This document shows, one piece after another, positions 1 through 21,024 of a stretch of 64,000 nt of DNA. Position 1 is the stretch's first letter. Each line of letters opens with the position of its first letter. The stretch spans positions 236,215 to 300,214 of the forward strand of contig CAYFPM010000001.1 of assembly GCA_964345045.1 (NCBI GenBank). The letters run 5' to 3'. Source of the DNA: an uncultured Gammaproteobacteria bacterium. Lineage in GTDB: Bacteria > Patescibacteriota > Patescibacteriia > Magasanikbacterales > UBA922. Under the pieces are notes generated by a model. The model did no database searches. It was not told the DNA's origin and saw only the letters and a list, made by a program, of their open reading frames with translations. Both the position numbers and the translations under genes were made by a program.

Positions 1-132
1 ATTGTGGTGGACACGATGAAAGAAAATGTTACCGGCGCAATAACCGCTAACATCGCAAACATCGTGATCGTGGGAGTGATTATCTTCTCAATCGGATTTG
101 TTTGGCGTCTTGCTCGTCGCTTCATGCGATAG
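1..132 (+). CDS. Partial CDS (C-terminus) of a small membrane protein resembling an inovirus major coat protein
   Basis: Frame 1 reads ...IVVDTMKENVTGAITANIANIVIVGVIIFSIGFVWRLARRFMR*. This gives an amphipathic N-part, a hydrophobic helix and a basic C-tail, which is the classic g8p architecture. It sits directly upstream of the large secreted ORF. Confidence 0.4.
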   Translation: MVVDTMKENVTGAITANIANIVIVGVIIFSIGFVWRLARRFMR

Positions 133-199
133 GCATAGCACGGTGGGGGCTTGCACTCAATATGCAAAGCCCCCAACGCCGTGCAGTAACGAACCTATT

Positions 200-1912
200 A
201 TGAAACTCTCCTTACTTAAATATAGATTACTCCGCACGCTTGCTGTTCTTTCCACTCTTGCCGTGTCTTTTTTGTTTGTCCATGCTGTTCATGCAGAATC
301 ATTCGAGGCAGATGTTGCCGATTTTGCCCCAGCGTCAAATTGGTACACCTGGTTTATTCGAAGCAGTAACGAAACAGGACACGGACAAAAGTTTATCACT
401 GCCGTTGATACAGAAGCAATCCAAACAGTAGGATTTAAATTGTGTCGTCTTGGAAACTTAGTACACCCAAAGACACTCACACTGTGCAACAGTGCAACCA
501 ACGGATGGTACGGAGGATGTAGTGATCCACTCGCCACAAAAGAATTTACCGCAGAAGAACTCAATGAGATGATCCACTACGACCTAAATTGTAATTCTAA
601 CTTAGAGGGTGGACAAGAAGACGGTGAATTTTTTAAGTGGGCATACTTTAGCTTTGATGAGCCTGTAAATGTTAGTAGCTCACAACATTACTTTGTTCTC
701 TTAAACAGTGCGTCGAGTGCTGACAACGAATCAGGCTCTAAACTTCGCACGATGTATAACAACTCAAACTATCTCGGAAGCAGTGCGGATTATCCCGATG
801 GACAAGCCTACTACTACAAAGGAGCAACCAGATACACCTCGGGAGCGTCCACAGATATTTTCTTCAAAATATTTAGTGCTGACCCGATTACAATTCCATT
901 TGAGATTACCTCACCCGTACAAGATCAAGAAGTTATCAATGACACATGGATTACTGTATCGGGAACCTGTCCGTACGTGGGAGAAAATAGAATCGGATTT
1001 ACTGATGACTGTCTCGGATTTGAAGAAATTGAATATACCGCCTCATGTACCGAAGACAATACCTTTTCCGCACAGTTCTACCACACCAGTTTATCCGACC
1101 GAGTGATAGCACGAGATATAGAAAGCGTCTCTGGTGATTGTGTTGATTACGATGACCTCATGGATTTCGTCACGGTAGACGGCATTGAATTTGTGGACGG
1201 CTACCCCGAGGATTGGTATTTCAACTTTGGACTCTACGACGATTACAACATACAAATTAAGTCACCGAGCTTTGATACCGCTCTCACACTCCCGAAAGGC
1301 TCAACCAGTAAAGACTTTACATTTAGCTTTACTTATCCCGATGGAACAATAGATAGCCTGACGTTCAACATCAAACAATATGACAGTGACGGAACAGAAC
1401 TTAATGCGGCATTTCATACTCGCACACTTGCAAGCATGGCGGACACGAACGACTACACCGTAACACTCTCCGCTTCTACGACACCGTATCATTATGTTGT
1501 GCAACTCATAGAAGACGGCACGCTGAAACGACAATATCCATTTGGAGTTTATGTTTCAGATTTAGATTTTGTCGGCAACCCCGACGACGACGGTGGATAT
1601 TTCTTTCCTCGCATTGTCGAAGAACTCCGCAAAAAGATTGTATTCAACTATTACTTTGCCTTTCATGACGGCTTTTACAACATGTTCAATGGACAATATT
1701 CAAGCCCCTCACCGACGGCACTCGACATTACATTCAAAAGTGTATCGGGCAATGGACAGTATGACCTTGACGTCAAAATATTTTCCGCGAGCGATCCACG
1801 AGTAAAGGCATTTTCAAGTGGTCTTCGTCCGTACATTGTCGCCCTCTTGTGGCTCGGCTTTGCTCTTTACGTGGTGTTCCGAGTGACGCATTTATTCAGT
1901 GATAACCAGTAG
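200..1912 (+). CDS. Large secreted protein with C-terminal membrane anchor. Candidate phage adsorption/minor coat protein (g3p-like by position).
   Basis: Internal Met at 200 begins MKLSLLKYRLLRTLAVLSTLAVSFLFVHAVHA, a signal peptide. The C-terminus PYIVALLWLGFALYVVFRV is a TM segment. It lies between the coat-like ORF and the Zot-like ORF. No sequence-level homolog recognised. Confidence 0.5.
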   Translation: MKLSLLKYRLLRTLAVLSTLAVSFLFVHAVHAESFEADVADFAPASNWYTWFIRSSNETGHGQKFITAVDTEAIQTVGFKLCRLGNLVHPKTLTLCNSATNGWYGGCSDPLATKEFTAEELNEMIHYDLNCNSNLEGGQEDGEFFKWAYFSFDEPVNVSSSQHYFVLLNSASSADNESGSKLRTMYNNSNYLGSSADYPDGQAYYYKGATRYTSGASTDIFFKIFSADPITIPFEITSPVQDQEVINDTWITVSGTCPYVGENRIGFTDDCLGFEEIEYTASCTEDNTFSAQFYHTSLSDRVIARDIESVSGDCVDYDDLMDFVTVDGIEFVDGYPEDWYFNFGLYDDYNIQIKSPSFDTALTLPKGSTSKDFTFSFTYPDGTIDSLTFNIKQYDSDGTELNAAFHTRTLASMADTNDYTVTLSASTTPYHYVVQLIEDGTLKRQYPFGVYVSDLDFVGNPDDDGGYFFPRIVEELRKKIVFNYYFAFHDGFYNMFNGQYSSPSPTALDITFKSVSGNGQYDLDVKIFSASDPRVKAFSSGLRPYIVALLWLGFALYVVFRVTHLFSDNQ

Positions 1913-1915
1913 CCT

Positions 1916-2161
1916 ATGTTTAGCTTTATAGAATCAATCCTTGTAAAGATTATTTCGCTTTTGCCTGACGCTGATCCGAGCAATTCCGTTATCACGGCCG
2001 TAACGAGTGCGTTTGCGACAATCACCCCGACATTCTCACAAATTGACCTTATCTTCCCGATATTCGTCTTGTTCAAAGTCTTGCTTCTCGTGATGTTCGT
2101 TGAAATGACCATATTCTTATTCACCTTTATCTTGCAAATCGCAACATTCTTTAAGCCATAA
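1916..2161 (+). CDS. Small hydrophobic membrane protein (g6p-like by position)
   Basis: 81 aa with two or three hydrophobic helices. It is tightly packed between the adsorption-like and Zot-like genes, with a 4-nt gap and then a 5-nt gap. Confidence 0.4.
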   Translation: MFSFIESILVKIISLLPDADPSNSVITAVTSAFATITPTFSQIDLIFPIFVLFKVLLLVMFVEMTIFLFTFILQIATFFKP

Positions 2162-2166
2162 CTAAT

Positions 2167-2871
2167 ATGATCACCATTGTTACAGGAAAACCAGGAGCAG
2201 GAAAAACCCTCTACATGACATACAAGGCACTTGAGATGTTTCTCAAAGGACATGATGTATACGCAAATTGGAAACTCAACTTCACGCCCTATGTCATAAA
2301 GAAAAAAGTGGACTTGAAAAAAGTCGGCCGTGTCTACTTCTGGTCTGAAATACCTGAACTCCTCCATATTAAAGGCGGACAGATATTTATAGACGAAGCC
2401 CAAGGATATTTTGATAGCCGTGAGTGGCAAGACATGCCTCCGTCGGCAAAACAAAAATTCTCTGCTCACCGTCACGATGTACGGAAAGATAAAGATGGAA
2501 ATACCATCCCACTCGACATATACGCAGGCGTACAACATACAGGAAACATTGATAAACGGATACGAGATTTAGGACAACACTTTCTAGAAGTACGCAATGT
2601 CTTCAAAAAAGTATTCATGGCTTCACACTTTGAACTGCATGATCTCAAAGATGACAACGTAAAACGACGAGCCATTAAACGCTCATTCTTCCTCATGAAC
2701 AAACTCAAAGCCAACTGCTACAACACCCACGAAGCCGTGAACTTCATCGAATACCCAAACTTCCCATACCACCGAAAATATCCGCACAGATTCTCCAACG
2801 AAAATACAGGACTCATTCCCGACACCCCAGACATACCCCCATATTCCAATCAGCAACGCAAAAAAAGGTAG
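2167..2871 (+). CDS. Zot-like P-loop NTPase (filamentous-phage assembly protein, g1p family N-domain)
   Basis: N-terminus MITIVTGKPGAGKTLYMTY is a Walker A motif. IFIDEAQ is a Walker B-like motif. 234 aa is consistent with the Zot N-terminal domain. Confidence 0.65.
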   Translation: MITIVTGKPGAGKTLYMTYKALEMFLKGHDVYANWKLNFTPYVIKKKVDLKKVGRVYFWSEIPELLHIKGGQIFIDEAQGYFDSREWQDMPPSAKQKFSAHRHDVRKDKDGNTIPLDIYAGVQHTGNIDKRIRDLGQHFLEVRNVFKKVFMASHFELHDLKDDNVKRRAIKRSFFLMNKLKANCYNTHEAVNFIEYPNFPYHRKYPHRFSNENTGLIPDTPDIPPYSNQQRKKR

Positions 2872-2879
2872 TAGTTCAA

Positions 2880-3281
2880 TTAAGAACTACTACCGACCTG
2901 TTCTACTTGCTTAATGTAAAACAGGTTTACCCGTTTCGGGTATTTGCGAACGACAGTACCGTCCTTGTCTTTCTTCTCAATGATGATGAAAGACTTGAGG
3001 GCTTTTTCGCCCTTTTTAACCTGATAGCCCATTTCGAGCCATCGGTTATACGTTAAACAATTACTTTTTGGATCGTAATTGTTTGCGTCTTCTTCGCCGA
3101 ACCGATCAAGGATCTGTTTGCGAATAAGGTCTGAAGTTACTTCAGAACCTTTCCATGTGGAAACTAATTTGTTTTCCATAGAACTAAATATATCACGGTC
3201 GAATGAAAACGTCCGTGGCTGACCGTTTAGTGCCGTATCGGACAGGAACAGAAACAGCGTCTGATAGCTTGCTTTAGTCAA
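2880..3281 (-). CDS. ArdC-N / DUF1738-like ssDNA-binding domain protein
   Basis: The motif CLTYNRWLEMGYQVKKGEKALKSFII matches the ArdC N-domain signature WLTFKQA..LGG.VRKGEKG. It is divergent to Rep, in the position where an ssDNA-binding protein (gV analogue) would be expected. Confidence 0.45.
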   Translation of the reverse strand: MTKASYQTLFLFLSDTALNGQPRTFSFDRDIFSSMENKLVSTWKGSEVTSDLIRKQILDRFGEEDANNYDPKSNCLTYNRWLEMGYQVKKGEKALKSFIIIEKKDKDGTVVRKYPKRVNLFYIKQVEQVGSSS

Positions 3282-3405
3282 GGTGGAGACTTGTACAACC
3301 TTTATTCAAGAAAAGCTGACGCTACACTGAAACAACCTGATACGGAAAAAACGAGCTACATATTATCTATCGGTGAATCTATACCGATCATCCCGTAAGT
3401 AATCA

Positions 3406-3435
3406 TTTTTTTCTCGTCTGCCCGACGAAAAAAAA
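3406..3435. promoter_or_regulatory. A/T-flanked hairpin in the divergent intergenic region upstream of Rep. Candidate rolling-circle origin (nick site hairpin).
   Basis: tttttttctcgtc tgccc gacgaaaaaaaa forms a long imperfect hairpin. A second inverted repeat atcggt..accgat lies at 3367-3390. Confidence 0.25.
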
Positions 3436-3514
3436 TGAGTGCTTGCGAGAGGTATATCGCAGATACAACTATTACTCTCTTAACTTGATTATATCCACAC
3501 ATCTAACGAAAACT

Positions 3515-4291
3515 ATGGCACATTCCTACACACTCAAAGTAGTTGTGTCGGGAAAGCAGGTCGAAGTATTCAAATATAGCAAAGAAGTGTGGCGTGACTA
3601 TGACTCATCTCCAAAACAAGTCACTACTCAAAAGGAGTCCAAGCAATTAAACATGTTCGAACAAGAAGCACTGCGACAGAAAAAGGTGCAATATTCAATT
3701 AACCGAACGAAAACAGAGATACGCCGTCAAATTAACGCCAATCCGCAACTGAATAAGTTTATGACCCTGACTTTCGCCGACAACATCACTGACATCAAAA
3801 CTGCGAACTACATGTTTAATCAGTTTATTAAGCGTATCTCATATAAATACAAAAATTTCGAGTACTTTGCTGTACCTGAATTTCAAAAGCGTGGGGCTGT
3901 TCACTATCATGTGCTATGCAACCTACCATACATCGAAATGAACGTCTTAGAGTACGTTTGGGGGCATGGCATGGTAAATATCCGTAAAGTAGACGAAGTG
4001 AACAACCTCGGGGCGTACATGAGCAAATACTTAGGTAAAGAACTGTTCTCTGGTCGCATGTTTGGTAAAAAGAAATTCTTTCGTTCACAGTCCTTAAAAT
4101 CTCCTGTAGAGCTTCTTGCATGGTGGGCGAGAAAGTTTATTGAGAAGTTTCTTTCACTGCTCACACCAGTCTTTGAAAAGACGTTTGAGAGTGAATACAT
4201 GGGAGAGGTTGAGTACAAGGCGTATACGCTCGACTTTTTCCCGTCCAAGTGCAATGACCCGCAATGGTCGATAGTTTTTAATAACTCCTAA
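3515..4291 (+). CDS. Rolling-circle replication initiator (HUH endonuclease superfamily, phage Rep/gpA-like)
   Basis: HUH motif in GAVHYHVLCN. Two-tyrosine motif YMSKYLGKE (YxxKY). The likely start is the internal Met MAHSYTLK. The listed ORF starts at 3443. Confidence 0.65.
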   Translation: MAHSYTLKVVVSGKQVEVFKYSKEVWRDYDSSPKQVTTQKESKQLNMFEQEALRQKKVQYSINRTKTEIRRQINANPQLNKFMTLTFADNITDIKTANYMFNQFIKRISYKYKNFEYFAVPEFQKRGAVHYHVLCNLPYIEMNVLEYVWGHGMVNIRKVDEVNNLGAYMSKYLGKELFSGRMFGKKKFFRSQSLKSPVELLAWWARKFIEKFLSLLTPVFEKTFESEYMGEVEYKAYTLDFFPSKCNDPQWSIVFNNS

Positions 4292-4292
4292 C

Positions 4293-4451
4293 ATGATCTC
4301 TCTTGCGAAATTCAAAGAGCTTACCGAGTCGGAAGGTCTATACCTATCTGATCTTGAGGCACTCGAAGCAAGAGAAACAATCTCCCAGTTATTAGAAATT
4401 GCGTTCAATACATGGATGGAACAACAAAAAGAAACAAAAACATCGACTTGA
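4293..4451 (+). CDS. Small hypothetical ORF (52 aa) between Rep and recombinase. Possible recombination directionality factor or other.
   Basis: ATG..TGA open frame MISLAKFKELTESEGLYLSDLEALEARETISQLLEIAFNTWMEQQKETKTST, below the ORF-track cutoff. No recognised motif. Confidence 0.2.
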   Translation: MISLAKFKELTESEGLYLSDLEALEARETISQLLEIAFNTWMEQQKETKTST

Positions 4452-4608
4452 TTTTTTTGTATGTTCTTGATACTATTCCTTTGGACTCAACTCAAATCAC
4501 GATTTTTTTGTGCCATAATTTTTGATATTGTGGCGAGAAAAGGGAGCAATCCTGCTTCAACGTCTTCGTGATTGTTGAGTCCAAGCAGTTCTTTGCTTCC
4601 TTTTTTAT

Positions 4609-6150
4609 TTGCATATGAAAAAACAACTACAACGAGGTGTCATCTATTACAGAGTATCGACAGCAGAACAGGCTGAACGTGGTTTTAGTTTGGAAAATCA
4701 ACGTGAGGCGTGTTTGCATTACGCAAAAAGCAAGGACATTGATGTGATAGGCGAATATCATGATGACGGAATTTCTGCAAAGACAACAAATCGCAAAGGG
4801 CTACAGAATATGCTCCAATTTTGTTCTACCAAAAGCAATAAGATTGATTGTGTGATTGTAAACAAGGTTGACCGCCTTTCTCGAGATGTGAATGATTACA
4901 CGAGTATTTTCACACAGCTCAAAGGGCGAGGTATCACGCTCATCTCTACCACGGAAGCAATAGACAATACACCATTTGGAAAGTGTGTCGGTAATATCAT
5001 GGCGACATTTGCACAGCTAGACAATGACATGCGAAGCGAGCGAGTCACGGCAGGAATGAAAAAATGTATTGAGTCTGGTCGCTGGCCGTTCAAGGCTCGC
5101 ATTGGGTATCTCAATTACACAGACGCAGACGGCAACAAAAGCATAATTGTTGATCACAAAAAAGCTCCATTGGTACGCTTCATTTTTGAAGAATATGCAA
5201 AAGGAGTATACACCGAGGAAGAAGTACGGCAACAAGTAAACGCCAAGGGATTGCGTTCATCGAATGGAAAAGAAGTATCTCCGCAGTTTATCCATAAAAT
5301 ACTCTCTGATAAATTCTATATCAGTATCATGACAATGAACGGCGTGGAATATCCAGCATCGCATGAGCCGATTATCCGCAATGAAACGTATTATCAGTGC
5401 CAAAAGTTCATGCGAAAGTACGACAAAAAGACAAACATGTCGCTCAAAAAGAAAAACGAGCTATTTCCGCTTAGAAATTTTGTATTGTGTGGAGAGTGTA
5501 GTCGTCCATTAACCGCTTCTTTGTCTACCAGTCATACAGGCAAGAAATTTCCATATTATCGGTGCTATAACAAAGAATGCACTGCTCCAAAGTCTCTCTC
5601 TAAGGACAGGCTAGAGAGTGAGTTTTTCGATTTTCTCAAAGAACTTGCACCAGACAAACGGTATCTCAAAGTTATACGACACATGGCTCTTGAACTATGG
5701 GAAAAGAAGTATAAAGAGATGAATGTAAGCAATGAACAAATACAGAGAGAAATTGACATACTCAAAGAGAAAAAAAGAAAGACCTTTGATCTGCTCGGCA
5801 AAGGTATTATTGATGATGAAGATTTCAAAGAAGAACTTGACCGCATTAAAGCCTCGATTCAAGATAAAGAAGAATTGCTACACCAAACACCCAAAGAAAA
5901 TTTTGACCTAGAGAAAGCAATGGATATGTGTTTTGATTTCTTTTTGGAAGTGCCTGAACATTGGCAAAAGGCGACCTACACAAAGAAAATACAACTTCAG
6001 AGTTCGATTTTTTCAAAAAAACCCTCGTACCATTATCCAAAATTTGGAACCCCTAATTTTTCGCTAATCTTTCAACAAAAAAGAGACTCTGCACATGCAA
6101 AATCCCTTTTGGTAGCCCGTAGGGGAATCGAACCCCTGTTCCCAGGATGA
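4609..6150 (+). CDS. Large serine recombinase (resolvase/invertase N-domain, recombinase domain and zinc ribbon). Candidate integrase of the element.
   Basis: N-terminus VIYYRVSTAEQAERGFSLENQRE carries the catalytic Ser motif. C-terminal half has Cys pairs LCGECSRPL...YYRCYN. The last 41 nt overlap the 3' end of tRNA-Glu on the opposite strand. Confidence 0.85.
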   Translation: MHMKKQLQRGVIYYRVSTAEQAERGFSLENQREACLHYAKSKDIDVIGEYHDDGISAKTTNRKGLQNMLQFCSTKSNKIDCVIVNKVDRLSRDVNDYTSIFTQLKGRGITLISTTEAIDNTPFGKCVGNIMATFAQLDNDMRSERVTAGMKKCIESGRWPFKARIGYLNYTDADGNKSIIVDHKKAPLVRFIFEEYAKGVYTEEEVRQQVNAKGLRSSNGKEVSPQFIHKILSDKFYISIMTMNGVEYPASHEPIIRNETYYQCQKFMRKYDKKTNMSLKKKNELFPLRNFVLCGECSRPLTASLSTSHTGKKFPYYRCYNKECTAPKSLSKDRLESEFFDFLKELAPDKRYLKVIRHMALELWEKKYKEMNVSNEQIQREIDILKEKKRKTFDLLGKGIIDDEDFKEELDRIKASIQDKEELLHQTPKENFDLEKAMDMCFDFFLEVPEHWQKATYTKKIQLQSSIFSKKPSYHYPKFGTPNFSLIFQQKRDSAHAKSLLVARRGIEPLFPG

Positions 6151-6184
6151 AAACCTGGTGTCCTAACCACTAGACGAACGGGCC
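6110..6184 (-). tRNA. tRNA-Glu (anticodon TTC), CCA encoded
   Basis: Reverse complement GGCCCGTTCGTCTAGTGGTTAGGACACCAGGTTTTCATCCTGGGAACAGGGGTTCGATTCCCCTACGGGCTACCA. The acceptor stem pairs, the anticodon loop is TTTTCAT and the T-loop is GGTTCGATTCC. Confidence 0.85.
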
Positions 6185-6185
6185 A

Positions 6186-6428
6186 TTAAATTATTCTCTT
6201 TAACAATTCTTCTTTTGTAGAACTGTGTTTTTTGAGTTTATTTTCTCTTTTTCTTGCTAAGCTCAATGTATTGTAAGCTTCGTAGTATACCAACTTCCAA
6301 GGTTTTTTTGTTTTTGTGTATTTTGATTTTCCCAAGTTGTGATCTTTAAATCTTTTTTTAAGATCACTTGTTGACCCAATATAATAAGTAAGATCTTTCT
6401 TACTTTGAATTACATATACGTAGTGCAT
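6186..6428 (-). CDS. GIY-YIG nuclease superfamily protein (YhbQ/UPF0213-like, about 80 aa)
   Basis: MHYVYVIQS...YYIGSTSDLKKRFKDHN...WKLVYYEAY..ARKRENKLKK. RBS AGGAGG lies 5 nt upstream of this Met. The listed ORF starts at 6470, but the extra N-terminal codons cover two tetraloop hairpins and a tRNA fragment. Confidence 0.7.
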   Translation of the reverse strand: MHYVYVIQSKKDLTYYIGSTSDLKKRFKDHNLGKSKYTKTKKPWKLVYYEAYNTLSLARKRENKLKKHSSTKEELLKRII

Positions 6429-6484: not shown

Positions 6485-6514
6485 CTAACCACTAGACGAA
6501 CGGGCCATTAAATT
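6485..6514 (-). repeat. Duplicate of the first 22 nt of tRNA-Glu plus 8 nt of its upstream flank (direct repeat of 6163..6192)
   Basis: ctaaccactagacgaacgggccattaaatt occurs at both places. The copy is followed, on the minus strand, by hairpins CAGCC-TTCG-GGCTG and TGACCC-GAAG-GGGTCA. Confidence 0.8.
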
Positions 6515-8103: not shown

Positions 8104-8625
8104 ATGGCTAAGACAAGACAACAAAAAGAAGAAGCTGTACAAGGTTTGGCAACATCTATAAAAGATGCCAAAGCAGCAGTTTTTGCCAATTTTCAAGGTT
8201 TGAAAGTGTCTGAGTCCGAAGAACTTCGTGGCAAATGTAGAGAAAATAATATTTCTTACGTTGCTACCAAGAAAACCCTTTTGGGCAGAGCTCTAAAAGA
8301 AGCCGGATTAGAAGTAGACACCAAAACTTTCGAAGGTGGTGTGGCCACAATACTTGGGCAAGATGACGAAGTCGCTCCAGCCCAAATAATTGCTGACTTT
8401 GCCAAAGACCACGAACTAGTAACCATCTTTGGTGGTGTGCTAGAAGGTGAGTTTATTGACGCAGCCAAAGTAACAGAATTGTCCAAGCTTCCAAGCAAGC
8501 AACAATTGCTTGGTCAGTTGGTTGGCACATTGAACGCTCCAGTATCTGGATTTGTAAATGTACTTGCCGGCAATATGCGTGGACTAGTAAACGTCCTTAA
8601 CGGGATTAAAGAATCAAAAGCCTAA
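8104..8625 (+). CDS. rplJ: 50S ribosomal protein L10
   Basis: MAKTRQQKEEAVQGLA...FANFQGLKVSESEELRGKCRE...TKKTLLGRAL is the L10 family pattern. It is followed by rplL. Confidence 0.93.
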   Translation: MAKTRQQKEEAVQGLATSIKDAKAAVFANFQGLKVSESEELRGKCRENNISYVATKKTLLGRALKEAGLEVDTKTFEGGVATILGQDDEVAPAQIIADFAKDHELVTIFGGVLEGEFIDAAKVTELSKLPSKQQLLGQLVGTLNAPVSGFVNVLAGNMRGLVNVLNGIKESKA

Positions 8626-9230: not shown

Positions 9231-11384
9231 CTATTCTAGATCAAAAGAGTAAATTTTATTTTGATCCAAGATATATACCAAATCTTTTTCTTCTAGCACC
9301 ACCATGCCAGTTGGGTTTTGCCAATCTGTACTAGTATATTGGCCAATTAATCTACCATCTTTGGCCAAAATCACCACTCTTTTTTGGCTAGGTTCTAAAA
9401 TATATAAATTATTTACATCGTTGTAAGTCCATATTTGTTTAGGATTGGTTAGGGTTGGATCTAGGCCTGTGATATCAAAATTTTCTTTTCGGCCTTTGGT
9501 AAATTTGTTTAAGATTCCGTCTTCGTTTAGTACAAAGATATCCCCATCGATAGCCAATGAAGTAGCTTGACTCAAATCAATATTAGTATCTTTCAACCAT
9601 TTGGAACCACGATCAAAACCAGTTTGAGTGGTGCTGTGTTTTAGAATTTGGCTGTTATTTTTATCTACACTGTAGAGACGTTGATTGTATACAACCAAAC
9701 TTCCAATCTCAGAATCTTCAGACACATCCAAATCTTTGGCTACAACGGCGCCTGTTTCTTTGTCAAAAATCGCAATTTGGTTTTTCCCAGACAAAAATAC
9801 TATTTGGTCTTGTTCTTTTGGAGTACTGGCTTGTGCTAATTTTAGAGCAGAACTATATTCTTTTGACTCAAAATTATTGGTGTCTGTATCAAATAAATAT
9901 AATTTTTGTTCACCTTCTCCAAAGGCTACCAATTTATTGTCTATAATAGCTAGTTCGGAGACATTAACATTTTCGGTTTTTGTGGCAATATCAAAAACTA
10001 ATTTAGCTTCAACATCTTTTACTTTTCTTAGTACTTGTAATTTTTCTTCTATACTTTGGGCAAGTTTTTGTTTTTGGGATATTTCTTCGTCAGACTTGTC
10101 TGGCAAATTTTCTATCATTTGGCTGGCTTCTTGAAGTAGGTTAAAAGCTTTGCTTTCGTCTTCGTAGATCATACTAGCTTCGGCAGCATCTCTTTTGTCT
10201 ACAATTGCTTGAATTTGGTTTTGGTATTCGGCCTCGGCTTGGATTTTGGCTTCGCTTATTTTGGAAATAGAGACACTAGCCAAAAAACCAATCCCAAGCA
10301 AAACTGTAATCAAAAATAAAATTTTGCTAGCCAGAGGAAGATTAGTAACAAAATCTTTTTTCCTTTGGATAGAATTTTCTATACTTTGCAAAACAATTTG
10401 TCTTTGTCCGCCGCGGTTAGTGATTAGAAGTATAATAGAAACAAGTACCTGCCACAGCCAGATAGCAATAGATTTTATAAGTTTATAAACACCAATAGAA
10501 CCAGCTACCAAGGCTCTCCCCAAAGTAATAAGGGTAATCGCAAAAAAACTTTGTTCTTCCATATCATGTCTAGGACGGTAGTTGGTCTCTATTTTTGGTT
10601 TTTTTATAGAGTATTTAGGAGCAGTTTTTTTGAGGGTAGGTTTTTCTTCTATATAATCATCATCTTCTTCTTCCACAACGTTAGTAGCTTCTATTTTGGG
10701 GCTAGGATTTTTTGCAATCAAGCGGTTTGATTTTGTAGGGGAGTGAAAAAGAATTCCCCCATAAGATAGTTCATTTTTCAAATTACTTAAGACCTTTTGG
10801 ACATGAGCCGCACTGTGTCTGGTAGTCCTCGAGGCGACTATTTTTTTGATTCGGTCTACAGAGATAAAATCAATTACATGAGGAGTGGTAACATATAGGT
10901 AATCGCCATCTTTTAATTCTCCTTCCAATACGGCCGAAAAAAGTTGTTCGTCGTCAGCTTCTTCTTCGGTTGCCAAGATATCAATGTCGTGTAGTTCTTC
11001 TTTTTTGCTAAAGATTAGATTGGCAGATGGGTTGCCGTGGTAGGCCAGTGAAACCTTGTTTTCTTTTAGAACACCCACAATACAATTAACTATAGAATTT
11101 CTATTGTCTAATATATGGTGGCCACGTCGGTTGATATGCTCTAGGGTCAGTTCAAAAGGATCTTTGTCGTCTTTTGGTTCCAGTTCGTAATATCCAGATT
11201 CCAAGTCGTCTATCATTTCTTGCAAATGTTCGATTTGTTCTATAGAGCCTGCATTTATTTCGCAGACAGCAAAAAAATAGCCTCTCTCTATTTCATCGGA
11301 AGTTGTGGGTTCTGTGATGTGCAACAGTACGTGTGATCTATTTTGATCTCCACCTTCTACAAAAAATTCGTGTAACTCTATCAT
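9231..11384 (-). CDS. Large membrane protein with C-terminal beta-propeller-like repeats. Function unknown.
   Basis: 717 aa. Central TM helices (FFAITLITLGRALVAGSIGVY..., ILFLITVLLGIGFLASV). A coiled-coil stretch. C-terminal repeated YxxD/N-rich strands typical of propeller folds. Confidence 0.65.
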   Translation of the reverse strand: MIELHEFFVEGGDQNRSHVLLHITEPTTSDEIERGYFFAVCEINAGSIEQIEHLQEMIDDLESGYYELEPKDDKDPFELTLEHINRRGHHILDNRNSIVNCIVGVLKENKVSLAYHGNPSANLIFSKKEELHDIDILATEEEADDEQLFSAVLEGELKDGDYLYVTTPHVIDFISVDRIKKIVASRTTRHSAAHVQKVLSNLKNELSYGGILFHSPTKSNRLIAKNPSPKIEATNVVEEEDDDYIEEKPTLKKTAPKYSIKKPKIETNYRPRHDMEEQSFFAITLITLGRALVAGSIGVYKLIKSIAIWLWQVLVSIILLITNRGGQRQIVLQSIENSIQRKKDFVTNLPLASKILFLITVLLGIGFLASVSISKISEAKIQAEAEYQNQIQAIVDKRDAAEASMIYEDESKAFNLLQEASQMIENLPDKSDEEISQKQKLAQSIEEKLQVLRKVKDVEAKLVFDIATKTENVNVSELAIIDNKLVAFGEGEQKLYLFDTDTNNFESKEYSSALKLAQASTPKEQDQIVFLSGKNQIAIFDKETGAVVAKDLDVSEDSEIGSLVVYNQRLYSVDKNNSQILKHSTTQTGFDRGSKWLKDTNIDLSQATSLAIDGDIFVLNEDGILNKFTKGRKENFDITGLDPTLTNPKQIWTYNDVNNLYILEPSQKRVVILAKDGRLIGQYTSTDWQNPTGMVVLEEKDLVYILDQNKIYSFDLE

Positions 11385-11515
11385 ATAGCTCTTTACACCT
11401 AAGTTTGGCTAAATTATACTATATAAAAACCAAGCGAGCAATGGAGATTTTGCTCTTGATAGAAATAAGGAGAAATGCTAGAATCCCTTACTCGATATAG
11501 TAATAAAAAATATTT

Positions 11516-12097
11516 ATGCTTGAACACCTATTTGGTTCAAAAACAAGATTAAAATTATTAAAGATTTTTTTTAGAGACACTACGGCCTCTTATTTTGTAA
11601 GAGAGCTTACTAGGCTAACCGACTCTCAGATAAATGCTGTTAGAAGGGAGCTTGGCCTATTGGTAAAGGCTGGAATAGTAAAAGAAGTAAAAGATAAGAA
11701 AGAAGGTTCTGCTTTGCGCAAATATTATTCAATTGACACTGAGTCAATTTTGTATACAGAATTACAAGCCCTACTTTTGAAAGATCAAACTATTGGCGAG
11801 AAGCAGTTTATAAAAGATATAGAGACCAAAGCCGGTGATTTGAGACTACTTTTGCTTACTGGTAGATTTACCGGAGACAAAAGAGCTCCTAGTGATATGT
11901 TGCTCGTAGGTGAAAAAATAAAAGAAACTAGTGTAAATAAGTTGGTAAAAAAATACGAAAAAGAATTGGGGACAGAGATAAATTATACTATAATGTCTGT
12001 ACAAGAATTTACAGATCGCAGAAATGTAATGGACAAATTTTTGTTTTCTTTGTTTGAATCAAAAAGTGTAAAAGTTTTGGATAAACTTACAGAATAA
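11516..12097 (+). CDS. wHTH with minimal nucleotidyltransferase (MNT)-like domain protein
   Basis: N-terminus LFGSKTRLKLLKIF...RELTRLTDSQINAVRRELGLLVKAGIV is a winged helix. The central GRFTGDKRAPSDMLLVG resembles the NTase GS..RG....SDIDLLV motif. Confidence 0.45.
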   Translation: MLEHLFGSKTRLKLLKIFFRDTTASYFVRELTRLTDSQINAVRRELGLLVKAGIVKEVKDKKEGSALRKYYSIDTESILYTELQALLLKDQTIGEKQFIKDIETKAGDLRLLLLTGRFTGDKRAPSDMLLVGEKIKETSVNKLVKKYEKELGTEINYTIMSVQEFTDRRNVMDKFLFSLFESKSVKVLDKLTE

Positions 12098-12102
12098 TAT
12101 TT

Positions 12103-12486
12103 ATGTTTTTAGCTATAGATCTCTCGGAAAGAGCGTGTGTTAAATTATGTCTTTTTGATAATGAGAAAGAAATTGATTTTGAAGTAGAGGGAGAAAACAG
12201 AGAACTTTTAGAGTCTATAGACTCTTTTTTTATTAAAGAAAAATTTGATAAGGAAAAGTTATTAGGGATCGCCGTAGTAGTGGGATCGGGGGCTTTTACC
12301 AGTACTAGAATTGCGACTACCACAGCCAATGCCTTTGCTTTTGCTTTGGGTGTTCCTGTTTTGGCGATTACTATAGAAGATTTAAAAGATAAGAAGAAAA
12401 TAGTAAAAAAATTTGATACAGATATAAAAGGTAAATACATCTCGGCTACATATTCTGCTGAGCCGAATATAGGTAAAAAGAAATGA
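12103..12486 (+). CDS. tsaB: tRNA threonylcarbamoyladenosine biosynthesis protein TsaB-like (N-domain only, truncated form)
   Basis: MFLAIDLSER...LLGIAVVVGSGAFTSTRIATTTANAFAFALGVPVLAIT matches the YeaZ/TsaB core LDAIAVGRGPGSFTGVRIGIG.AQGLA...P. Only 127 aa. Confidence 0.55.
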   Translation: MFLAIDLSERACVKLCLFDNEKEIDFEVEGENRELLESIDSFFIKEKFDKEKLLGIAVVVGSGAFTSTRIATTTANAFAFALGVPVLAITIEDLKDKKKIVKKFDTDIKGKYISATYSAEPNIGKKK

Positions 12487-12758
12487 ACCAACTTAAATTA
12501 AAAATTTTTGGCAAGGTACAAGGAGTTTTTTTTCGAGTAGAGTTGTGTAAATTTGCCAAGGAGCTTGGTATTTTTGGTTGGATAAAAAACGTCTCCGACG
12601 GCACAGTAGAGATTTTGGCAGAAGGCAGTACCAAAGACTTGAAAAAATTGGTAAAATGGTGTAGAGTTGGTCCTTCTTTATCACATGTAGATAGAGTAGA
12701 AGAAAAGTGGGAAAAAATAGAAAAATGCCAATTTAGCAAGTTTATAATATTAGAATAA
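12483..12758 (+). CDS. acyP: Acylphosphatase
   Basis: KIFGKVQGVFFRVELCKFAKELGIFGWIKNVSDGTVEILAEGS...GP is the acylphosphatase signature. Confidence 0.75.
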   Translation: MNQLKLKIFGKVQGVFFRVELCKFAKELGIFGWIKNVSDGTVEILAEGSTKDLKKLVKWCRVGPSLSHVDRVEEKWEKIEKCQFSKFIILE

Positions 12759-12781
12759 TTACAAATTTTAAATTTTTAATC

Positions 12782-12810
12782 AATTATAAATTTAATTAAA
12801 ATTTATAATT
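12782..12810. promoter_or_regulatory. Near-perfect AT palindrome upstream of the GT2 gene. Possible operator or promoter element.
   Basis: aattataaattt aatta aaatttataatt. The ATTATAAATTT motif recurs upstream of mscS at about 38648. Confidence 0.25.
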
Positions 12811-12819
12811 TAAAATTAA

Positions 12820-14307
12820 ATGATCTCAGATTATCATCGCTACAGACTATACGAAATATTACCGGGTTTATCTATCTGGCTGACTTTGTTTTTAGGGATA
12901 TTTCTTTCTTTTGTAAAACCACTTTGGATAATTTATTTTATTATTTTGTTCGATATTTATTGGGTATTAAAAATTTTTAATTTCTCTTTTTATCTTTTGG
13001 TAGCCTGGCGCAGAATGAGCATTACCTTAAAGACGGATTGGTTTGGTAAACTAAAAGAAATTAGAGGCTGGGAAGAAAAAGAACATCTTGTTTTTTTGAC
13101 CGTGTTTAACGAAGAATGGGGGGTGGTAAAAACAGCCATTAGCAGTGTGGCCGATGCTGTTTATGACAAGAAAAAATTTACTTTGGTAGTAGCTGGTGAA
13201 GAAAGAAAAAAGGAACATTGTTTGGAAATAATAGAAAAAACCAAAGCAGAATTTGGAGACAAATTTGAAAAAATAATTGGGACGATCCACCCCAAAGATC
13301 TACCGGGAGAAATACCAGGCAAAGGATCAAACTTGCATTATGCCGAAAGACAAGTAAAAGAATATGTAGACAAAAAAGGTTGGAAATACAAAGATGTAAT
13401 TGTTACGGTTTTTGATATAGACACTGTTTGCCACAGAGAATATTTTAATTATTTGACGTATCTGTATTGCACTCACAAAAATCCAACTAGAACTTCTTTT
13501 CAACCAGTAGCGCTTTATAACAATAATATGTGGGAGTCCCCATCGGTACTTCGTGTAATGGCTTTTGGTACCACTTTTTGGCTTATGACAGCTCTGGCCA
13601 GACAAGATGCTCTTGTAACTTTTTCTTCTCATTCTATGAGTTTCGAAGCTTTGGTGGCTGCTGGTTTTCATGAAAAAAGAATTGTAAGTGAGGACTCTAG
13701 GATTTTTTATCAAGCTTTTTTGGCTTACAATGGCAAGTACGAAGTAACCCCAATGTATATACCAGTATCTATGGATACTGTACGAGATGATAATTGGTGG
13801 CAAAGTATGAAAAATCTTTATCTGCAACAGAGACGTTGGGCCTGGGGAGTAGAACATGTGCCATATCTACTTTGGGAATTTCGCAAAAAAGGCAAAAAAA
13901 TTGCTTGGTGGAAAAAATTTAAATGGGTGTTTATAGAATGGGAAGGCAAGTGGTCTTGGTCTTTGGTAGCAATTATGATTACTTTTTTCCCCAGATTACC
14001 TATGTGGGTGGCCTCGGATTCTGTCAATCAAAGTGCTTTGTTTTTCAATGCTCCACATTTGATTCAGGTGATTATTACCGGTTCTATGATAGGCATGCTT
14101 TTGTCGGCAATGTTTAGTTTTCCGCTTTTGCCAAAGCGGCCAAAATCTCATCCCAAGCATCGTTATATCACTATGCTTTTGCAGTGGCTGCTTTTGCCAA
14201 TCTCTCTTATTTTCGTTAGTGCTATACCGGCCATTGATGCTGTAACTCATCTTATGTTTGGTAAATATCTTGGTTTTAATATCTCGCAAAAGAAAAGAGC
14301 GAATTAA
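12820..14307 (+). CDS. Membrane-bound family-2 glycosyltransferase with QxxRW motif (processive beta-glycan synthase-like)
   Basis: N- and C-terminal TM helices. A D-x-D-like FDIDTV motif. The QQRRWAWG (QxxRW) motif. Confidence 0.75.
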   Translation: MISDYHRYRLYEILPGLSIWLTLFLGIFLSFVKPLWIIYFIILFDIYWVLKIFNFSFYLLVAWRRMSITLKTDWFGKLKEIRGWEEKEHLVFLTVFNEEWGVVKTAISSVADAVYDKKKFTLVVAGEERKKEHCLEIIEKTKAEFGDKFEKIIGTIHPKDLPGEIPGKGSNLHYAERQVKEYVDKKGWKYKDVIVTVFDIDTVCHREYFNYLTYLYCTHKNPTRTSFQPVALYNNNMWESPSVLRVMAFGTTFWLMTALARQDALVTFSSHSMSFEALVAAGFHEKRIVSEDSRIFYQAFLAYNGKYEVTPMYIPVSMDTVRDDNWWQSMKNLYLQQRRWAWGVEHVPYLLWEFRKKGKKIAWWKKFKWVFIEWEGKWSWSLVAIMITFFPRLPMWVASDSVNQSALFFNAPHLIQVIITGSMIGMLLSAMFSFPLLPKRPKSHPKHRYITMLLQWLLLPISLIFVSAIPAIDAVTHLMFGKYLGFNISQKKRAN

Positions 14308-14308
14308 T

Positions 14309-15778
14309 ATGATTCATTACAAAAACAAAAAAAGAAAAAAATGGCCATTTGTACTTTTGGCTTTTGTCTTGCTTTTGAGTGGGTTTGCTTTTTTTGTCTG
14401 GAGATTTGCTGGGACCCTGAATCCAGAAAAGATTTTGAATTTACCAGTGGTAAGACAAGAAGCAGAAAATATATTTGGAGGAGATACAGATTTTATTTAT
14501 AAATTACTACCACATTTTTTGGGCTTTTCAGAACCAAGAACAGTCTTGTTGCTTTTTCAAAATAATACCGAGCTTAGACCTTCCGGAGGTTTTATTGGTA
14601 GTTATGCCACGGTAAGAATAAACAAAGGGAAAGTAGATATCTTGAGAGTAGAAGGAAGTGAAAATTTGGATTGGCAAGCTCCAGATGATTGGATAGTAGA
14701 AGCACCAAGCATTTTAAAAGAAGAATTAAAAGTAGAAAAATGGTATTTTCGCGATAGCAATTGGTCGCCAGACTTTGTAGAGAGCGCCAAAAAAGCATTA
14801 GAATTTTATATAGCCGAAGGTGGGGTAGTTGGAGAAGAAATAGACACTGTAATCGCTATAACCCCGACTGTTTTGGAAAAAATGCTGGAATTATCTGGTT
14901 CGGTTATAGTAGATGGAATTGAATTTGATAATAATAATGTAACTGAAAAATTGGAATACGAAGTAGAATTTGGTTTTCGAGATAGAGGTATTCCTGTAGG
15001 AGAGAGAAAACAAATTATTGGTAGATTTATGTCGGTATTATTAAAAGAATTATCTAGTAATGCTTTTTCCAAAGGGTCTCAATACTTTGGAGAATTTAAG
15101 AAATTGGCAGAAGAAAAACATATTTTAGCTTTTAGCAAAAAAGAAGCTTTGCAAAATATTTTTGATGAAGAAGATTTGTCTGGTCGAGTAAAAGATTTTA
15201 GCGGGGACTACCTAATGTGGGTGGATGCCAATTTGGCAGCTCTAAAAACTGACCATGCGATTGAGAGAGAAGTTAGTTATAAAATTTTATCTTTGGAAAA
15301 TGATGCCGTGACCGCCTCGACCAAAATGACCTACAATCATACAGGGGAGTTTGACTGGCGTACCAGTAGATACAGAACTTATGCTAGATTGTATGTGCCA
15401 AATGGGGCCAAGCTTTTGGGTGTAAAACTTAATGGCAATGAAGAAAAATTTATAGATAGCAAAGTAGATACTGGCACAGAGTTGGGCAAGACCTGGTTTG
15501 GATATTTTACAGTTGTAGAACCAGGACAGATTGGTTCGGTCGAGTTTGTTTATGAATTGCCTAAACTCGTATTCGATAGCATAGATAATGGGGAGTACAA
15601 ATTATTTGTTCAAAAGCAGCCTGGCACAATTGAGCCAAAATTGACGCTAGACCTTAATTTTGATAAACCTATTACAGGGGCCAGCCCAGCAGAAGCAGAA
15701 AATGAGTGGGGCGATAGCTCTTACAAGCTAGAAACAAACCTTAGGGAAGATAGAGAGTTTGGAGTAGAACTGAAATAA
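14309..15778 (+). CDS. DUF4012-like membrane-anchored protein
   Basis: The internal Met at 14309 overlaps the GT2 stop. N-terminal TM (WPFVLLAFVLLLSGFAFFVW). ELRPSGGFIGSYATV motif. Co-located with a glycan synthase. Confidence 0.55.
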   Translation: MIHYKNKKRKKWPFVLLAFVLLLSGFAFFVWRFAGTLNPEKILNLPVVRQEAENIFGGDTDFIYKLLPHFLGFSEPRTVLLLFQNNTELRPSGGFIGSYATVRINKGKVDILRVEGSENLDWQAPDDWIVEAPSILKEELKVEKWYFRDSNWSPDFVESAKKALEFYIAEGGVVGEEIDTVIAITPTVLEKMLELSGSVIVDGIEFDNNNVTEKLEYEVEFGFRDRGIPVGERKQIIGRFMSVLLKELSSNAFSKGSQYFGEFKKLAEEKHILAFSKKEALQNIFDEEDLSGRVKDFSGDYLMWVDANLAALKTDHAIEREVSYKILSLENDAVTASTKMTYNHTGEFDWRTSRYRTYARLYVPNGAKLLGVKLNGNEEKFIDSKVDTGTELGKTWFGYFTVVEPGQIGSVEFVYELPKLVFDSIDNGEYKLFVQKQPGTIEPKLTLDLNFDKPITGASPAEAENEWGDSSYKLETNLREDREFGVELK

Positions 15779-15839
15779 TAAGTTTGTTTTCTTGTTTTAA
15801 TGATTTAATGTTCTAGTGTTTTAATGTTTTCATGAATTT

Positions 15840-16847
15840 ATGTTTGTAAAAAAAGTAGCCATTGATTTGGGAACAACAAACGTTTTGGTTCACGTGCCAA
15901 AGCGGGGAATTGTGGTAAATGAACCATCGGTAGTAGCCATTTCTAGAGAAGACAAAAAAGTTTTGGCAGTAGGAGCCGAGGCCAAAGATATGATAGGCCG
16001 TACGCCAGACACTATTATAGCCGAGCGGCCACTAAAAGATGGAGTAATTGCCAACTACCATACTACCGAAGCCATGCTTCGTTATTTTATCAATCGCGCT
16101 CTTGGTGGAGTAAGACTTTTTCGCCCCGAAGTAATGGTGGCTGTACCGGCTGGAATTACCTCTACAGAGCGTAGAGCTGTGATAGATGCTTCTATGGCTG
16201 CAGGAGCCAGAGCAGCTTATATTATAAAAGAGCCAATTGTAGCCGCTATTGGAGCCGACATTCCTATTGGTTCGGCTTCTGGACACATGGTAATAGATAT
16301 TGGAGGTGGTACAGCCGAGATTGCTGTTATTTCTTTGGGTGGGATTGTATCGGTTGGTTCGGTTAGAATTGGTGGCACCAGATTCGATCAATCAATTAGT
16401 GAATTTATTCGTCGCAAATATGGTTTGGCTGTGGGCGAGCGTACTGCCGAACAAATAAAAATCCAAGTTGGTTCGGCCATGTTTATGGATAAGCCCCTGA
16501 CAATGGAAGTAAAAGGGAGAGATGTGATTTCTGGCTTGCCTAGAAATTTGACGATTTCTTCGGACGATACTACCGAAGCTTTGCAACACGATATGGAAGG
16601 ATTGATAGAGGCTGTAAAAGAAGTACTTCACAAAACTCCACCAGAACTTTCGGCAGATGTAATGGACAAAGGTATTATTATGACCGGGGGGTCTTCTCAA
16701 CTTCGCAATTTGGACGAATTGATCTCGCAAGCTACTGGTGTTCCGTGTTACCTGGGCGAAGAGCCCCTTCTTTGTGTAGCCAAAGGAACTGGTATTGCTC
16801 TTGAAAACTTGGATAGTTACAAGAGGAGTATAATGTCAACAAAGTAA
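15840..16847 (+). CDS. mreB: Rod shape-determining protein MreB
   Basis: VAIDLGTTNVLVHV...VVNEPSVVA...DIGGGTAEIAVISLGGIV...IIMTGGSSQL are the actin-fold motifs. Confidence 0.95.
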   Translation: MFVKKVAIDLGTTNVLVHVPKRGIVVNEPSVVAISREDKKVLAVGAEAKDMIGRTPDTIIAERPLKDGVIANYHTTEAMLRYFINRALGGVRLFRPEVMVAVPAGITSTERRAVIDASMAAGARAAYIIKEPIVAAIGADIPIGSASGHMVIDIGGGTAEIAVISLGGIVSVGSVRIGGTRFDQSISEFIRRKYGLAVGERTAEQIKIQVGSAMFMDKPLTMEVKGRDVISGLPRNLTISSDDTTEALQHDMEGLIEAVKEVLHKTPPELSADVMDKGIIMTGGSSQLRNLDELISQATGVPCYLGEEPLLCVAKGTGIALENLDSYKRSIMSTK

Positions 16848-16852
16848 TTAAT

Positions 16853-16934
16853 GTACGAATTACGAATTTTACGAATGTACGAATTTTTAAAATTTAGTTA
16901 ATTCGCATATTCGCGATATTTGTAATTCGTACAT
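16853..16934. repeat. Palindromic array of TACGAAT/ATTCG units, family F3, copy A
   Basis: gtacgaattacgaattttacgaatgtacgaattttt aaaatttagtt aattcgcatattcgcgatatttgtaattcgtacat. A closely related copy lies at 63175..63249. Confidence 0.7.
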
Positions 16935-16939
16935 ATCTT

Positions 16940-18828: not shown

Positions 18829-18885
18829 AAATAAGAGCGGCAAATGTTTAAATGTTTGCATATTTAATTGTTTAAATGATTTTTT

Positions 18886-20535: not shown

Positions 20536-20549
20536 TAGGGAGGAGGGAG

Positions 20550-21013: not shown

Positions 21014-21024
21014 TACAGAAAATT

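Follow-up and report, generated by a model that had tools for sequence, protein, structure and literature searches.

Filamentous phages are already known from bacteria of the candidate phyla radiation (CPR). Roux et al. 2019 (PMC6813254) reported nine CPR inovirus species (main text and Supplementary Table 4), including a prophage of Magasanikbacteria GW2011_GWA2_56_11 on contig Ga0076004_106, found serine recombinases among the inovirus integration genes and used direct repeats of at least 10 bp as the criterion for attachment (att) sites. For the inoviruses phiRSM1 and phiRSM3 (Askora et al. 2011, as relayed in PMC4471427), a serine recombinase is described that acts at the 3' end of a tRNA-Ser gene with a 13-bp att sequence, and in that account a repressor gene lies near attP, which is intergenic between int and the repressor gene. 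Here, we analyse a 64,000-nt stretch of DNA (hereafter the window; positions 236,215 to 300,214 of contig CAYFPM010000001.1, assembly GCA_964345045.1), of which positions 1-6118 very probably represent the right-hand part (6.1 kb) of a temperate inovirus-like prophage of 14,227 bp that was inserted at a tRNA-Glu gene by a large serine recombinase (LSR).

The phage resembles the CPR inoviruses of Roux et al. and its relatives in IMG/VR (for example IMGVR_UViG_3300025152_000016 and IMGVR_UViG_2711768762_000001) in its host group, in its Zot-like ATPase (73-80% identity in 14 IMG/VR contigs) and in a gene order running from LexA to Rep. It differs in being a distinct species-level variant with its own cargo, comprising a GNAT protein, a LOOT RNA and a SoFic-like gene, and in att sites that the direct-repeat criterion could not define and that are defined here at base level. 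An earlier note, made from the letters of this DNA, had called such filamentous prophages with serine integrases barely described, which does not hold, as CPR inoviruses and inovirus serine recombinases are both reported in PMC6813254 and at least 15 close relatives are present in IMG/VR; the kind of phage is already known and this prophage is a well-delimited further case. With phiRSM, as presented in PMC4471427, it shares the combination of an inovirus, its own serine recombinase and an att core formed by a tRNA 3' end, whereas the phiRSM enzyme is given there as a small one of resolvase/invertase type and the enzyme here is an LSR of 511 aa (prophage form) or 535 aa (predicted free form) with the PF07508 and PF13408 domains, an attP inside the integrase open reading frame (ORF) and a core of 9 bp at tRNA-Glu. 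Domain architecture, short att sites of minimal identity and a presumed 2-bp crossover are shared with the integrases of phiC31, Bxb1, TP901-1 and A118, as is a small adjacent gene that possibly encodes a directionality factor. By sequence, solved structures match our LSR mainly in the catalytic domain, and one full-length integrase entry aligns weakly over residues 23-317.

For the part of the prophage to the left of the window we used a 134-kb contig (ERZ930070 k127_30324), the source of segment L005, of which positions 9802-21713 are identical to the window (L005 coordinate = window coordinate + 9801). The identical sequence was assembled from four runs (project PRJEB17505; ERR2281800-ERR2281803). 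The att sites were defined by a three-way comparison of attR (in the window), attL (in L005) and attP (in L121, a metagenome contig from a relative), which gave the following features:

Window 6110-6118, no strand assigned: attR common core TGGTAGCCC, antisense of tRNA-Glu positions ~68-76.
L005 1684-1692, no strand assigned: attL core TGGTAGACC, from the three-way comparison.
L121 52-60, no strand assigned: attP core TGGTAGCCC, from the three-way comparison.
Window 6110-6184, minus strand: host tRNA-Glu(UUC), the integration target (attB' side), detected with ARAGORN and Rfam.

The three sites share a common core of 9 bp, TGGTAG(C/A)CC, which is the antisense of the 3'-terminal nucleotides of tRNA-Glu, and their arms are unrelated. 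The attL junction reads ...GCAGTTCTCCAG TGGTAGACC ACAGCACTGACCATTGG..., the attR junction ...AAAATCCCTTT TGGTAGCCC GTAGGGGAATCGAACC... and the attP junction ...GAAATCCCTTT TGGTAGCCC ACAGCACTGACCATTGG... (attP sequence AAATCCCTTTTGGTAGCCCACAGCACTGACC plus flanks). From L005 1684-1692 to window 6110-6118 the element measures 14,227 bp; its left end is thus outside the window, as the earlier note had expected, at a distance of 8.1 kb upstream. L121 came from a scan of JGI metagenomes with a conserved 25-mer of the P arm, which found five contigs, three with integrated copies, one ending at the core and L121 itself; the 25-mer was absent from IMG/VR. In L121 the 3' end of the integrase gene continues without interruption into the tail sequence, its positions 1-60 being 90% identical to window 6059-6118 and its positions 52-191 being 92.9% identical to L005 1684-1823. 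The crossover probably lies within the CC at window 6117-6118, since two landmarks, the single A/C difference in the core and the divergence point of P' and B', locate it there, on the assumption that the attP of this phage has the C of L121. The excised phage is expected to carry the junction ...GCACATGCAAAATCCCTTTTGGTAGCCCACAGCACTGACCATTGG... and the site left after excision to read ...CAGTTCTCCAGTGGTAGACCGTAGGGGAATCGAACC... (with A, or with C in place of A).

The integrase ORF and the tRNA-Glu gene overlap by exactly 41 nt, as the earlier note had also seen, and from this overlap it had concluded that the phage carries the 3' ~41 nt of tRNA-Glu and reconstitutes the gene on integration, with attL as a second copy. 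A tRNA 3' end carried at the integrase gene is a common layout for elements with tyrosine integrases. Here, no second tRNA 3' copy was found in the 24 kb to the left (25-mer search with up to 3 mismatches; no significant local match), the real attL sharing the 9-bp core only, and in the attP forms L121 and L107 (the latter described below) the tRNA sequence goes no further than the core. When five related prophages are compared, the tRNA part is seen to follow the host, showing compensatory changes in the acceptor stem and UUC versus CUC anticodons, while the integrase-coding P arm is conserved, and because of this covariation the 41 tRNA nucleotides inside the integrase ORF are host DNA and not phage DNA. 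As the att sites share only the 9-bp core, the tRNA body therefore stays host-derived on integration. At most the final 7-9 nt of the tRNA come from the phage, among them an encoded CCA missing from the empty sites of three relatives (L011-L013). Judged by the attP, attL and attR junctions, the tRNA-copy account is refuted, and we give it next to no chance of being right; a search for a tRNA repeat is not a valid test for the attL of a serine integrase. Relatives of the LSR with 83-91% identity abut tRNA-Glu genes (UUC or CUC) and overlap them by the same 41 nt, two or more different host flanks being represented. A relative with 68% identity (L104) is truncated at the stop codon of the integrase but has the same tRNA-antisense ending.

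A shorter element of ~9.7 kb would have LexA as its first gene and its attL between the GNAT gene and LexA, leaving the GNAT gene and the LOOT RNA as host DNA. The gene set conserved in relatives does begin at LexA, the relative L112 has no cargo, the GNAT gene has a host-like G+C content (GC) at third codon positions (GC3) of 0.25, and the presumed attL, a T-rich stretch with GTAG at L005 ~5926-5940, resembles the trailer of empty sites. The circle junction of such an element would read ...TTTTGGTAG then TATTGGCATACCC, and the junction ...TGGTAGCCCACAGCACTG would contradict it. L121 runs from the integrase into the sequence of L005 1684-1823 and not into that of L005 ~5940, and minus-strand cargo occupies the same slot in relatives, which makes the shorter element very improbable compared with the 14,227-bp one. 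Other candidate boundaries, among them the ends of Logan contigs, were rejected. The left end of L006 (L005 6447) falls inside the LexA gene and is not an att site; the right end of L002 (window 6138) fits a graph branch starting at 6109; and the ends of L117 (L116 131 and 18213) agree with neither a simple circle nor an empty-site model. Direct or inverted repeats bounding the element yielded chance-level families only, plus an unrelated 30-nt repeat around a GIY-YIG gene, and a search for the attL of L112 by similarity to the tail in L091 gave chance matches only. Composition alone misplaces attL, as the GC3 change point is 80 nt upstream of the core.

In the 14,227-bp prophage, attP sits inside the 3' end of the integrase's own ORF, and integration replaces the native 35-aa C-terminal tail by the 11-aa peptide ARRGIEPLFPG, which is read from the tRNA antisense and ends at a TGA opposite the anticodon. 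The free form of the integrase is predicted to have 535 aa (...AKSLLV-AHSTDHWNLFIEEIRQWSLLIPSVFRECDLSCEQL), as against 511 aa in the prophage form. Among 120 homologue clusters from CPR-type sources (32-91% identity), 99 end in a tRNA-antisense peptide, for example ...LVARRGIEPLFPG, and four have a longer native tail with the motif W-N-x2-I-x-E-I-x2-W; in the CPR-wide family this tail comprises ~30-35 aa of the form V-D/A-x5-W-N-x2-I-x-E-I-x2-W..., and all of the 48 sequences aligned there have the V codon of the junction. A native tail was not found among the members of the integrase's own 90% cluster. One native-tail homologue with 47% identity is encoded on a Logan contig of 10,823 nt (L107), the two ends of which share exactly 30 nt (k-1), so that it closes to a circle of 10,793 bp in which the integrase gene is directly followed by minus-strand restriction-modification cargo. 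Since this circle has the native tail, the native tail represents the free (attP) form and the tRNA tail the integrated form. In an AlphaFold model of the 47%-identical native-tail homologue, a long helical hairpin is present at residues 347-423 and confidence extends to about residue 490, with a predicted local distance difference test (pLDDT) score below 50 for the tail, for which reason the folded enzyme is spared by the swap. While the exchange of tails is shown by the compared junctions, a regulatory role for it is a proposal. As a side observation, the integrase motif G-F/Y-G/R-T-P (window 6046-6054; L005 1618-1632) is encoded by a sequence resembling the antisense of a T arm in another frame, and ATCGAACACCTGTTC matches a tRNA-Glu segment at 14 of 15 positions, probably by coincidence.

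We know of no characterised large serine integrase with attP in its own coding sequence, and no description of a serine integrase with attP in its own ORF at a tRNA 3' end was found in the literature searched, so that the tail swap is apparently undescribed. The nearest known analogy would be the SSV1-type archaeal integrase, a tyrosine recombinase with attP in the int gene and a tRNA target, the gene of which is split into two large parts. Both systems have attP within the integrase ORF, a tRNA target and an integrated form encoding an altered integrase, but here it is a serine recombinase that loses only a poorly ordered 35-aa tail.

To the left, the prophage is directly abutted by at least 11.5 kb of DNA with 55-69% GC (L105 1-11600 / L005 1-1690) in a genome of 37% GC, and the junction between the two is the same in two independent assemblies. 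The high-GC DNA encodes a DnaG-like primase, a DUF87/TrwB-like ATPase, an SprT-like protein and a 549-aa serine recombinase (SerRec549), the current C-terminus of which is the displaced tail of the phage integrase: the body of this gene has 60% GC and a GC3 of 0.70, and its tail 39% and 0.37. The SerRec549 family has the same two tail types, and a regular-expression search for the native-tail motif in upstream regions matched solely the end of SerRec549. Assignment of the orphan tail by protein similarity was also tried; it was ambiguous and leaned the wrong way, toward a SerRec549 homologue. Because the displaced tail terminates the SerRec549 gene, the phage appears to have inserted between an older high-GC element and the tRNA, and the simplest history would be a tandem accretion, in which the phage arrived at tRNA-Glu after the high-GC element had already integrated there. 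The TsaD/DnaE block, which lies to the left of tRNA-Glu in relatives, was not found in the leftward DNA of this genome that was examined.

With so much mobile-element-like DNA directly abutting the phage and no host flank reached on the left, the high-GC DNA and the phage could also move together, as a single composite element that has two serine recombinases and a left end farther out, and tandem elements can co-excise. An attL with the phage's own P' arm is, by contrast, located exactly at the junction with the high-GC recombinase gene, the signature of an independent 14.2-kb insertion, and we regard the composite as improbable. The genes of the independent prophage, together with two features of its leftward part, are:

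Window 1-132 (ORF 4-132), plus strand: 3' part of the major coat gene (pVIII-like, 89 aa); full ORF at L005 9664-9933.
Window 200-1912, plus strand: pIII-like adsorption/minor coat protein, 570 aa; signal peptide at the N-terminus, transmembrane (TM) anchor at the C-terminus.
Window 1916-2161, plus strand: pVI-like small hydrophobic protein, 81 aa, with a TM-like segment at residues 39-79.
Window 2167-2871, plus strand: pI/Zot-like morphogenesis ATPase, 234 aa (PF05707, PHROG 197, PHROG 1675).
Window 2880-3179, minus strand: ArdC_N-like protein, 99 aa (PF08401, 26.7 bits, cut-off 22.6; PHROG 7245).
Window 3391-3450, no strand assigned: imperfect inverted repeat between the ArdC and Rep genes, with 22-nt arms, 82% complementary, spaced by 16 nt.
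Window 3515-4291, plus strand: HUH rolling-circle Rep, 258 aa (PF23343 REP_ORF2-G2P, 7.3e-21; PHROG 3419, 1e-33).
Window 4293-4451, plus strand: p52, an acidic protein of 52 aa that always accompanies the integrase.
Window 4615-6150, plus strand: LSR, prophage form, 511 aa (Resolvase, Recombinase, Zn_ribbon_recom).
L005 6028-6156, minus strand, ~3.7 kb upstream of the window: LOOT RNA (Rfam RF03000), 78 bits, full length.
L005 7855-8805, ~1 kb upstream of the window: SoFic-like Fic gene between the p271 and pV-like genes (PADLOC SoFic, 4.5e-46).

The earlier note had identified an integrated inovirus-like element with an LSR at tRNA-Glu, and the genes, profiles and att comparison bear this out: all of the genes that it listed are present where it placed them, the Zot, ArdC_N, Rep, and Resolvase plus Recombinase families were recovered in profile searches as it had predicted, and its HUH Rep is confirmed by the PF23343 match and by the motifs HYH and YMSKY. 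The Zot-like ATPase matches PF05707 with 31.7 bits (cut-off 20.3), PHROG 197 with 6.5e-20 and PHROG 1675, 'protein I of M13', with 2e-10, and has GKPGAGKT as its Walker A motif. Matches for the LSR are Resolvase at 5.5e-36, Recombinase (PF07508) at 4.3e-12 and Zn_ribbon_recom (PF13408) at 1.7e-9, with the catalytic motif YYRVSTAEQ. No secretin family match was obtained in profile searches of the ORFs in the window and upstream of it, in agreement with the absence that had been noted. The coat gene, which starts 137 nt before the first base of the window and is conserved in the IMG/VR relatives, encodes a protein with a signal-like N-terminus, one TM segment (residues 55-85) and a basic C-terminus (RLARRFMR). 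In 15 related viral contigs, the C-terminal half of the pIII-like protein is 50-69% identical and its gene always lies between the coat and pVI-like genes, and the position of the pVI-like gene directly upstream of the Zot gene is conserved in relatives. The ArdC_N-like gene, conserved in relatives and divergent from Rep, encodes an additional candidate single-stranded DNA (ssDNA)-binding or anti-restriction protein; of the divergent ssDNA-binding protein claimed in the earlier note, this candidate is present, but the likelier one, judged by size and position, is an 86-aa pV-sized ORF just outside the window, for which profile searches gave no family match. The inverted repeat may be an origin or a regulatory hairpin. 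No family match was found for p52 in profile searches; it lies directly upstream of the integrase in L101-L104 and L122 (76-87% identity), has a homologue with 38% identity in the circular L107, the Rep of which differs, and from its position is a candidate recombination directionality factor.

Upstream of the coat gene there are small TM ORFs, the 86-aa ORF, the Fic gene, a 271-aa protein (p271) and a LexA-type repressor with LexA_DNA_bind and Peptidase_S24 domains, followed farther upstream by the LOOT RNA, a 1300-aa GNAT protein on the minus strand and, as the second large serine recombinase, SerRec549. The complete element would thus consist of a left end with attL, the orphaned 35-codon integrase tail and a cargo slot (GNAT protein and LOOT RNA; minus strand), a middle part with the LexA/S24-type repressor, the conserved 271-aa protein, the SoFic-like Fic protein, the 86-aa pV-sized protein and small TM proteins, and a right part with the coat, pIII-like, pVI-like, Zot/pI, ArdC_N-like (minus strand), HUH Rep, p52 and LSR genes, attR and tRNA-Glu. 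The module order Rep, ssb (putative), small TM proteins, coat, pIII, pVI and pI is found in L005 and is conserved in relatives. Replication would proceed by a rolling circle through Rep, assembly and extrusion would rely on the Zot ATPase in the absence of a secretin, and lysogeny would be controlled by the LexA-like repressor. The isolated inoviruses (Thermus OH3/phiOH16, Vibrio, Ralstonia, M13) share the Zot/pI protein, the HUH Rep, the small coat protein and the module order, and in tblastn searches of GenBank phages the Zot ATPase matched inoviruses only. The element here differs from these isolates in an ATPase that is only 24-30% identical to theirs and has no TM segment, in having no secretin gene, and in a larger genome (14.2 kb) with defence-type cargo. 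As a speculation, the 81-aa hydrophobic protein encoded upstream of the ATPase may supply a membrane anchor.

Several points weigh against the prophage reading as a whole. The coat, pIII-like, pVI-like and pV-like proteins gave no family matches in profile searches and were assigned only from size, topology and position, and no TM segment of the kind in canonical pI was found in the whole 234-aa Zot-like ATPase. L121 is a relative (90-93% nucleotide identity at the junction) and could derive from a tandem dimer and not from a free circle. At the left end, the GC3 change point in the SerRec549 gene is ~80 nt upstream of the att core and not at the core, and the best protein match of the tail is the closest homologue of SerRec549, which before L121 argued for another boundary. 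For this exact phage, the protein collection and IMG/VR yielded no excised circle, and no empty site was seen either.

The missing excised form would also suit a prophage that has become defective or domesticated, or else an integrative rolling-circle plasmid with retained inovirus genes, with neither excision nor virions at present. The prophage-form integrase without a native tail points in the same direction, as do near-identical backbones without visible inovirus genes and the existence of deleted or insertion sequence (IS)-disrupted remnants. One such backbone, L103 (GCA_020049755.1 JAHZTO010009895.1), has the ArdC-Rep-p52-integrase genes at 91-94% identity at a tRNA-Glu(CUC), and a type I restriction-modification cluster in the place expected for the Zot and coat genes, a layout that shows modular exchange between phage and non-phage versions. 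The decayed L119 (Ga0210057_1051231) has kept nothing but LexA, an N-terminal half of p271 and the last third of the integrase, beside a tRNA-Glu(CUC). In the decayed L120 (Ga0210019_1063263) the end of an IS-type transposase is directly upstream of the last ~65 integrase codons, and the contig runs only 3 nt past the P-arm 25-mer, to where the att core ends. In the element itself, on the other hand, no ORF is broken and the two att sites are intact, with cores that match. Its morphogenesis module is evidently under selection, being conserved in more than 100 related clusters, and a related attP junction exists in nature (L121). A defective element is therefore considered unlikely, and the temperate inovirus-like prophage remains the preferred reading.

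The relatives show how widely its modules are exchanged. In IMG/VR, 14 contigs have the order LexA-p271-pV-like-TM-coat-pIII-pVI-Zot-ArdC(minus strand)-Rep, as do further contigs from elsewhere, and a fifteenth IMG/VR relative, L104, has the same order plus an integrase of the same family at 68% identity. The 271-aa protein has 127 clusters in CPR metagenome-assembled genomes (MAGs), with Magasanik-, Komeili- and Falkowbacteria among the named sources. Integration modules are swapped: other serine recombinases are found at tRNA-Asn (L112) and tRNA-Gln (L116), others again end in tRNA-antisense peptides (L092, L094), and L090 has a tyrosine integrase.

In relatives, minus-strand methyltransferase or restriction genes lie upstream of LexA/p271. 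The slot following the integrase tail contains a cyclic-oligonucleotide-based antiphage signalling system (CBASS; SMODS and SAVED) and a ResIII helicase in L121 (263-5549, minus strand), and minus-strand restriction-modification cargo in L107 (2888-9125), L116 (259-9229) and L109 (1-2365), with type I, II and III-like genes among the relatives; in L103 (1-7882), restriction-modification genes stand directly beside the ArdC gene. The slot downstream of attP would be a hot spot for defence cargo. In the present phage, the LOOT RNA is situated inside the slot and shares its strand with the 1300-aa GNAT gene, which it precedes by 227 nt; it was absent from 14 related viral contigs and is not a conserved phage part, and literature searches on the LOOT motif and on PRJEB17505 gave nothing useful. 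The GNAT domain is C-terminal, a search for defence families gave no match for the protein, and a defence role is a guess from its position only. The SoFic-like Fic gene is missing from most relatives; at the same moron position, between p271 and the pV-like gene, L088 (2677-3681, minus strand) carries a reverse transcriptase with a YADD motif. Across the CPR-wide family of serine integrases, the tail swap might serve as a built-in switch that makes the free and integrated forms differ in activity or directionality, and the slot adjacent to attP as a site for defence cargo, an idea that we put forward only tentatively.

The host is, by its sequence, a Magasanikbacteria-like CPR chromosome, the earlier note having suggested a CPR-like genome: the ribosomal protein L10 encoded at window 8104-8625 shares 64-73% identity with its counterparts in Candidatus Magasanikbacteria MAGs, and its other relatives with a credible name are all Patescibacteria/CPR. 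The same note had called the segment clearly GC-enriched, and the enrichment is real but only modest, with 41.4% GC in window 1-6109 versus 37.6% in the remainder of the window, where backbone windows of equal size have a mean of 37.5% (sd 1.7%) and a maximum of 42.7%; the whole 14,227-bp element has 40.6%. GC3 separates the element from its flanks better than GC, with 0.36-0.54 in its genes versus 0.18-0.42 (mostly <0.33) in five flanking genes. The search for the empty site in related genomes, which the earlier note had proposed, was successful in five relatives (L009, L011-L014), where tRNA-Glu is on the minus strand just upstream of rplJ and no phage genes are present at the site; these loci represent empty sites at genus or family level.

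The locus provides a fully delimited CPR filamentous prophage with att sites at base level, a defined tRNA-Glu target and a candidate directionality factor. To our knowledge, almost no genetic tools exist for CPR bacteria, and the tRNA-Glu-targeting integrase together with its attP of ~50 bp is a candidate tool for Magasanikbacteria-like genomes. Elements of this kind are missed or mis-trimmed by prophage finders that depend on direct repeats. The locus further documents tandem accretion at one tRNA and indicates a slot for defence cargo on CPR inoviruses.

Beyond the prophage, an 80-aa GIY-YIG gene (window 6186-6428, minus strand) lies between perfect 30-nt direct repeats at 6163-6192 and 6485-6514, each of which consists of the first 22 nt of tRNA-Glu plus 8 nt upstream. 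The upstream copy, in the sense of the tRNA, is followed by two GC hairpins and a degenerate stretch resembling an anticodon arm, which provides the ribosome binding site of the gene. The gene is absent beside tRNA-Glu in the five relatives and resembles a small mobile insertion, one that either duplicated the 5' part of the tRNA or took its place. A second GIY-YIG-like sequence at window 53633-53829, 48-51% identical to the first and split over two frames, is probably a pseudogene.

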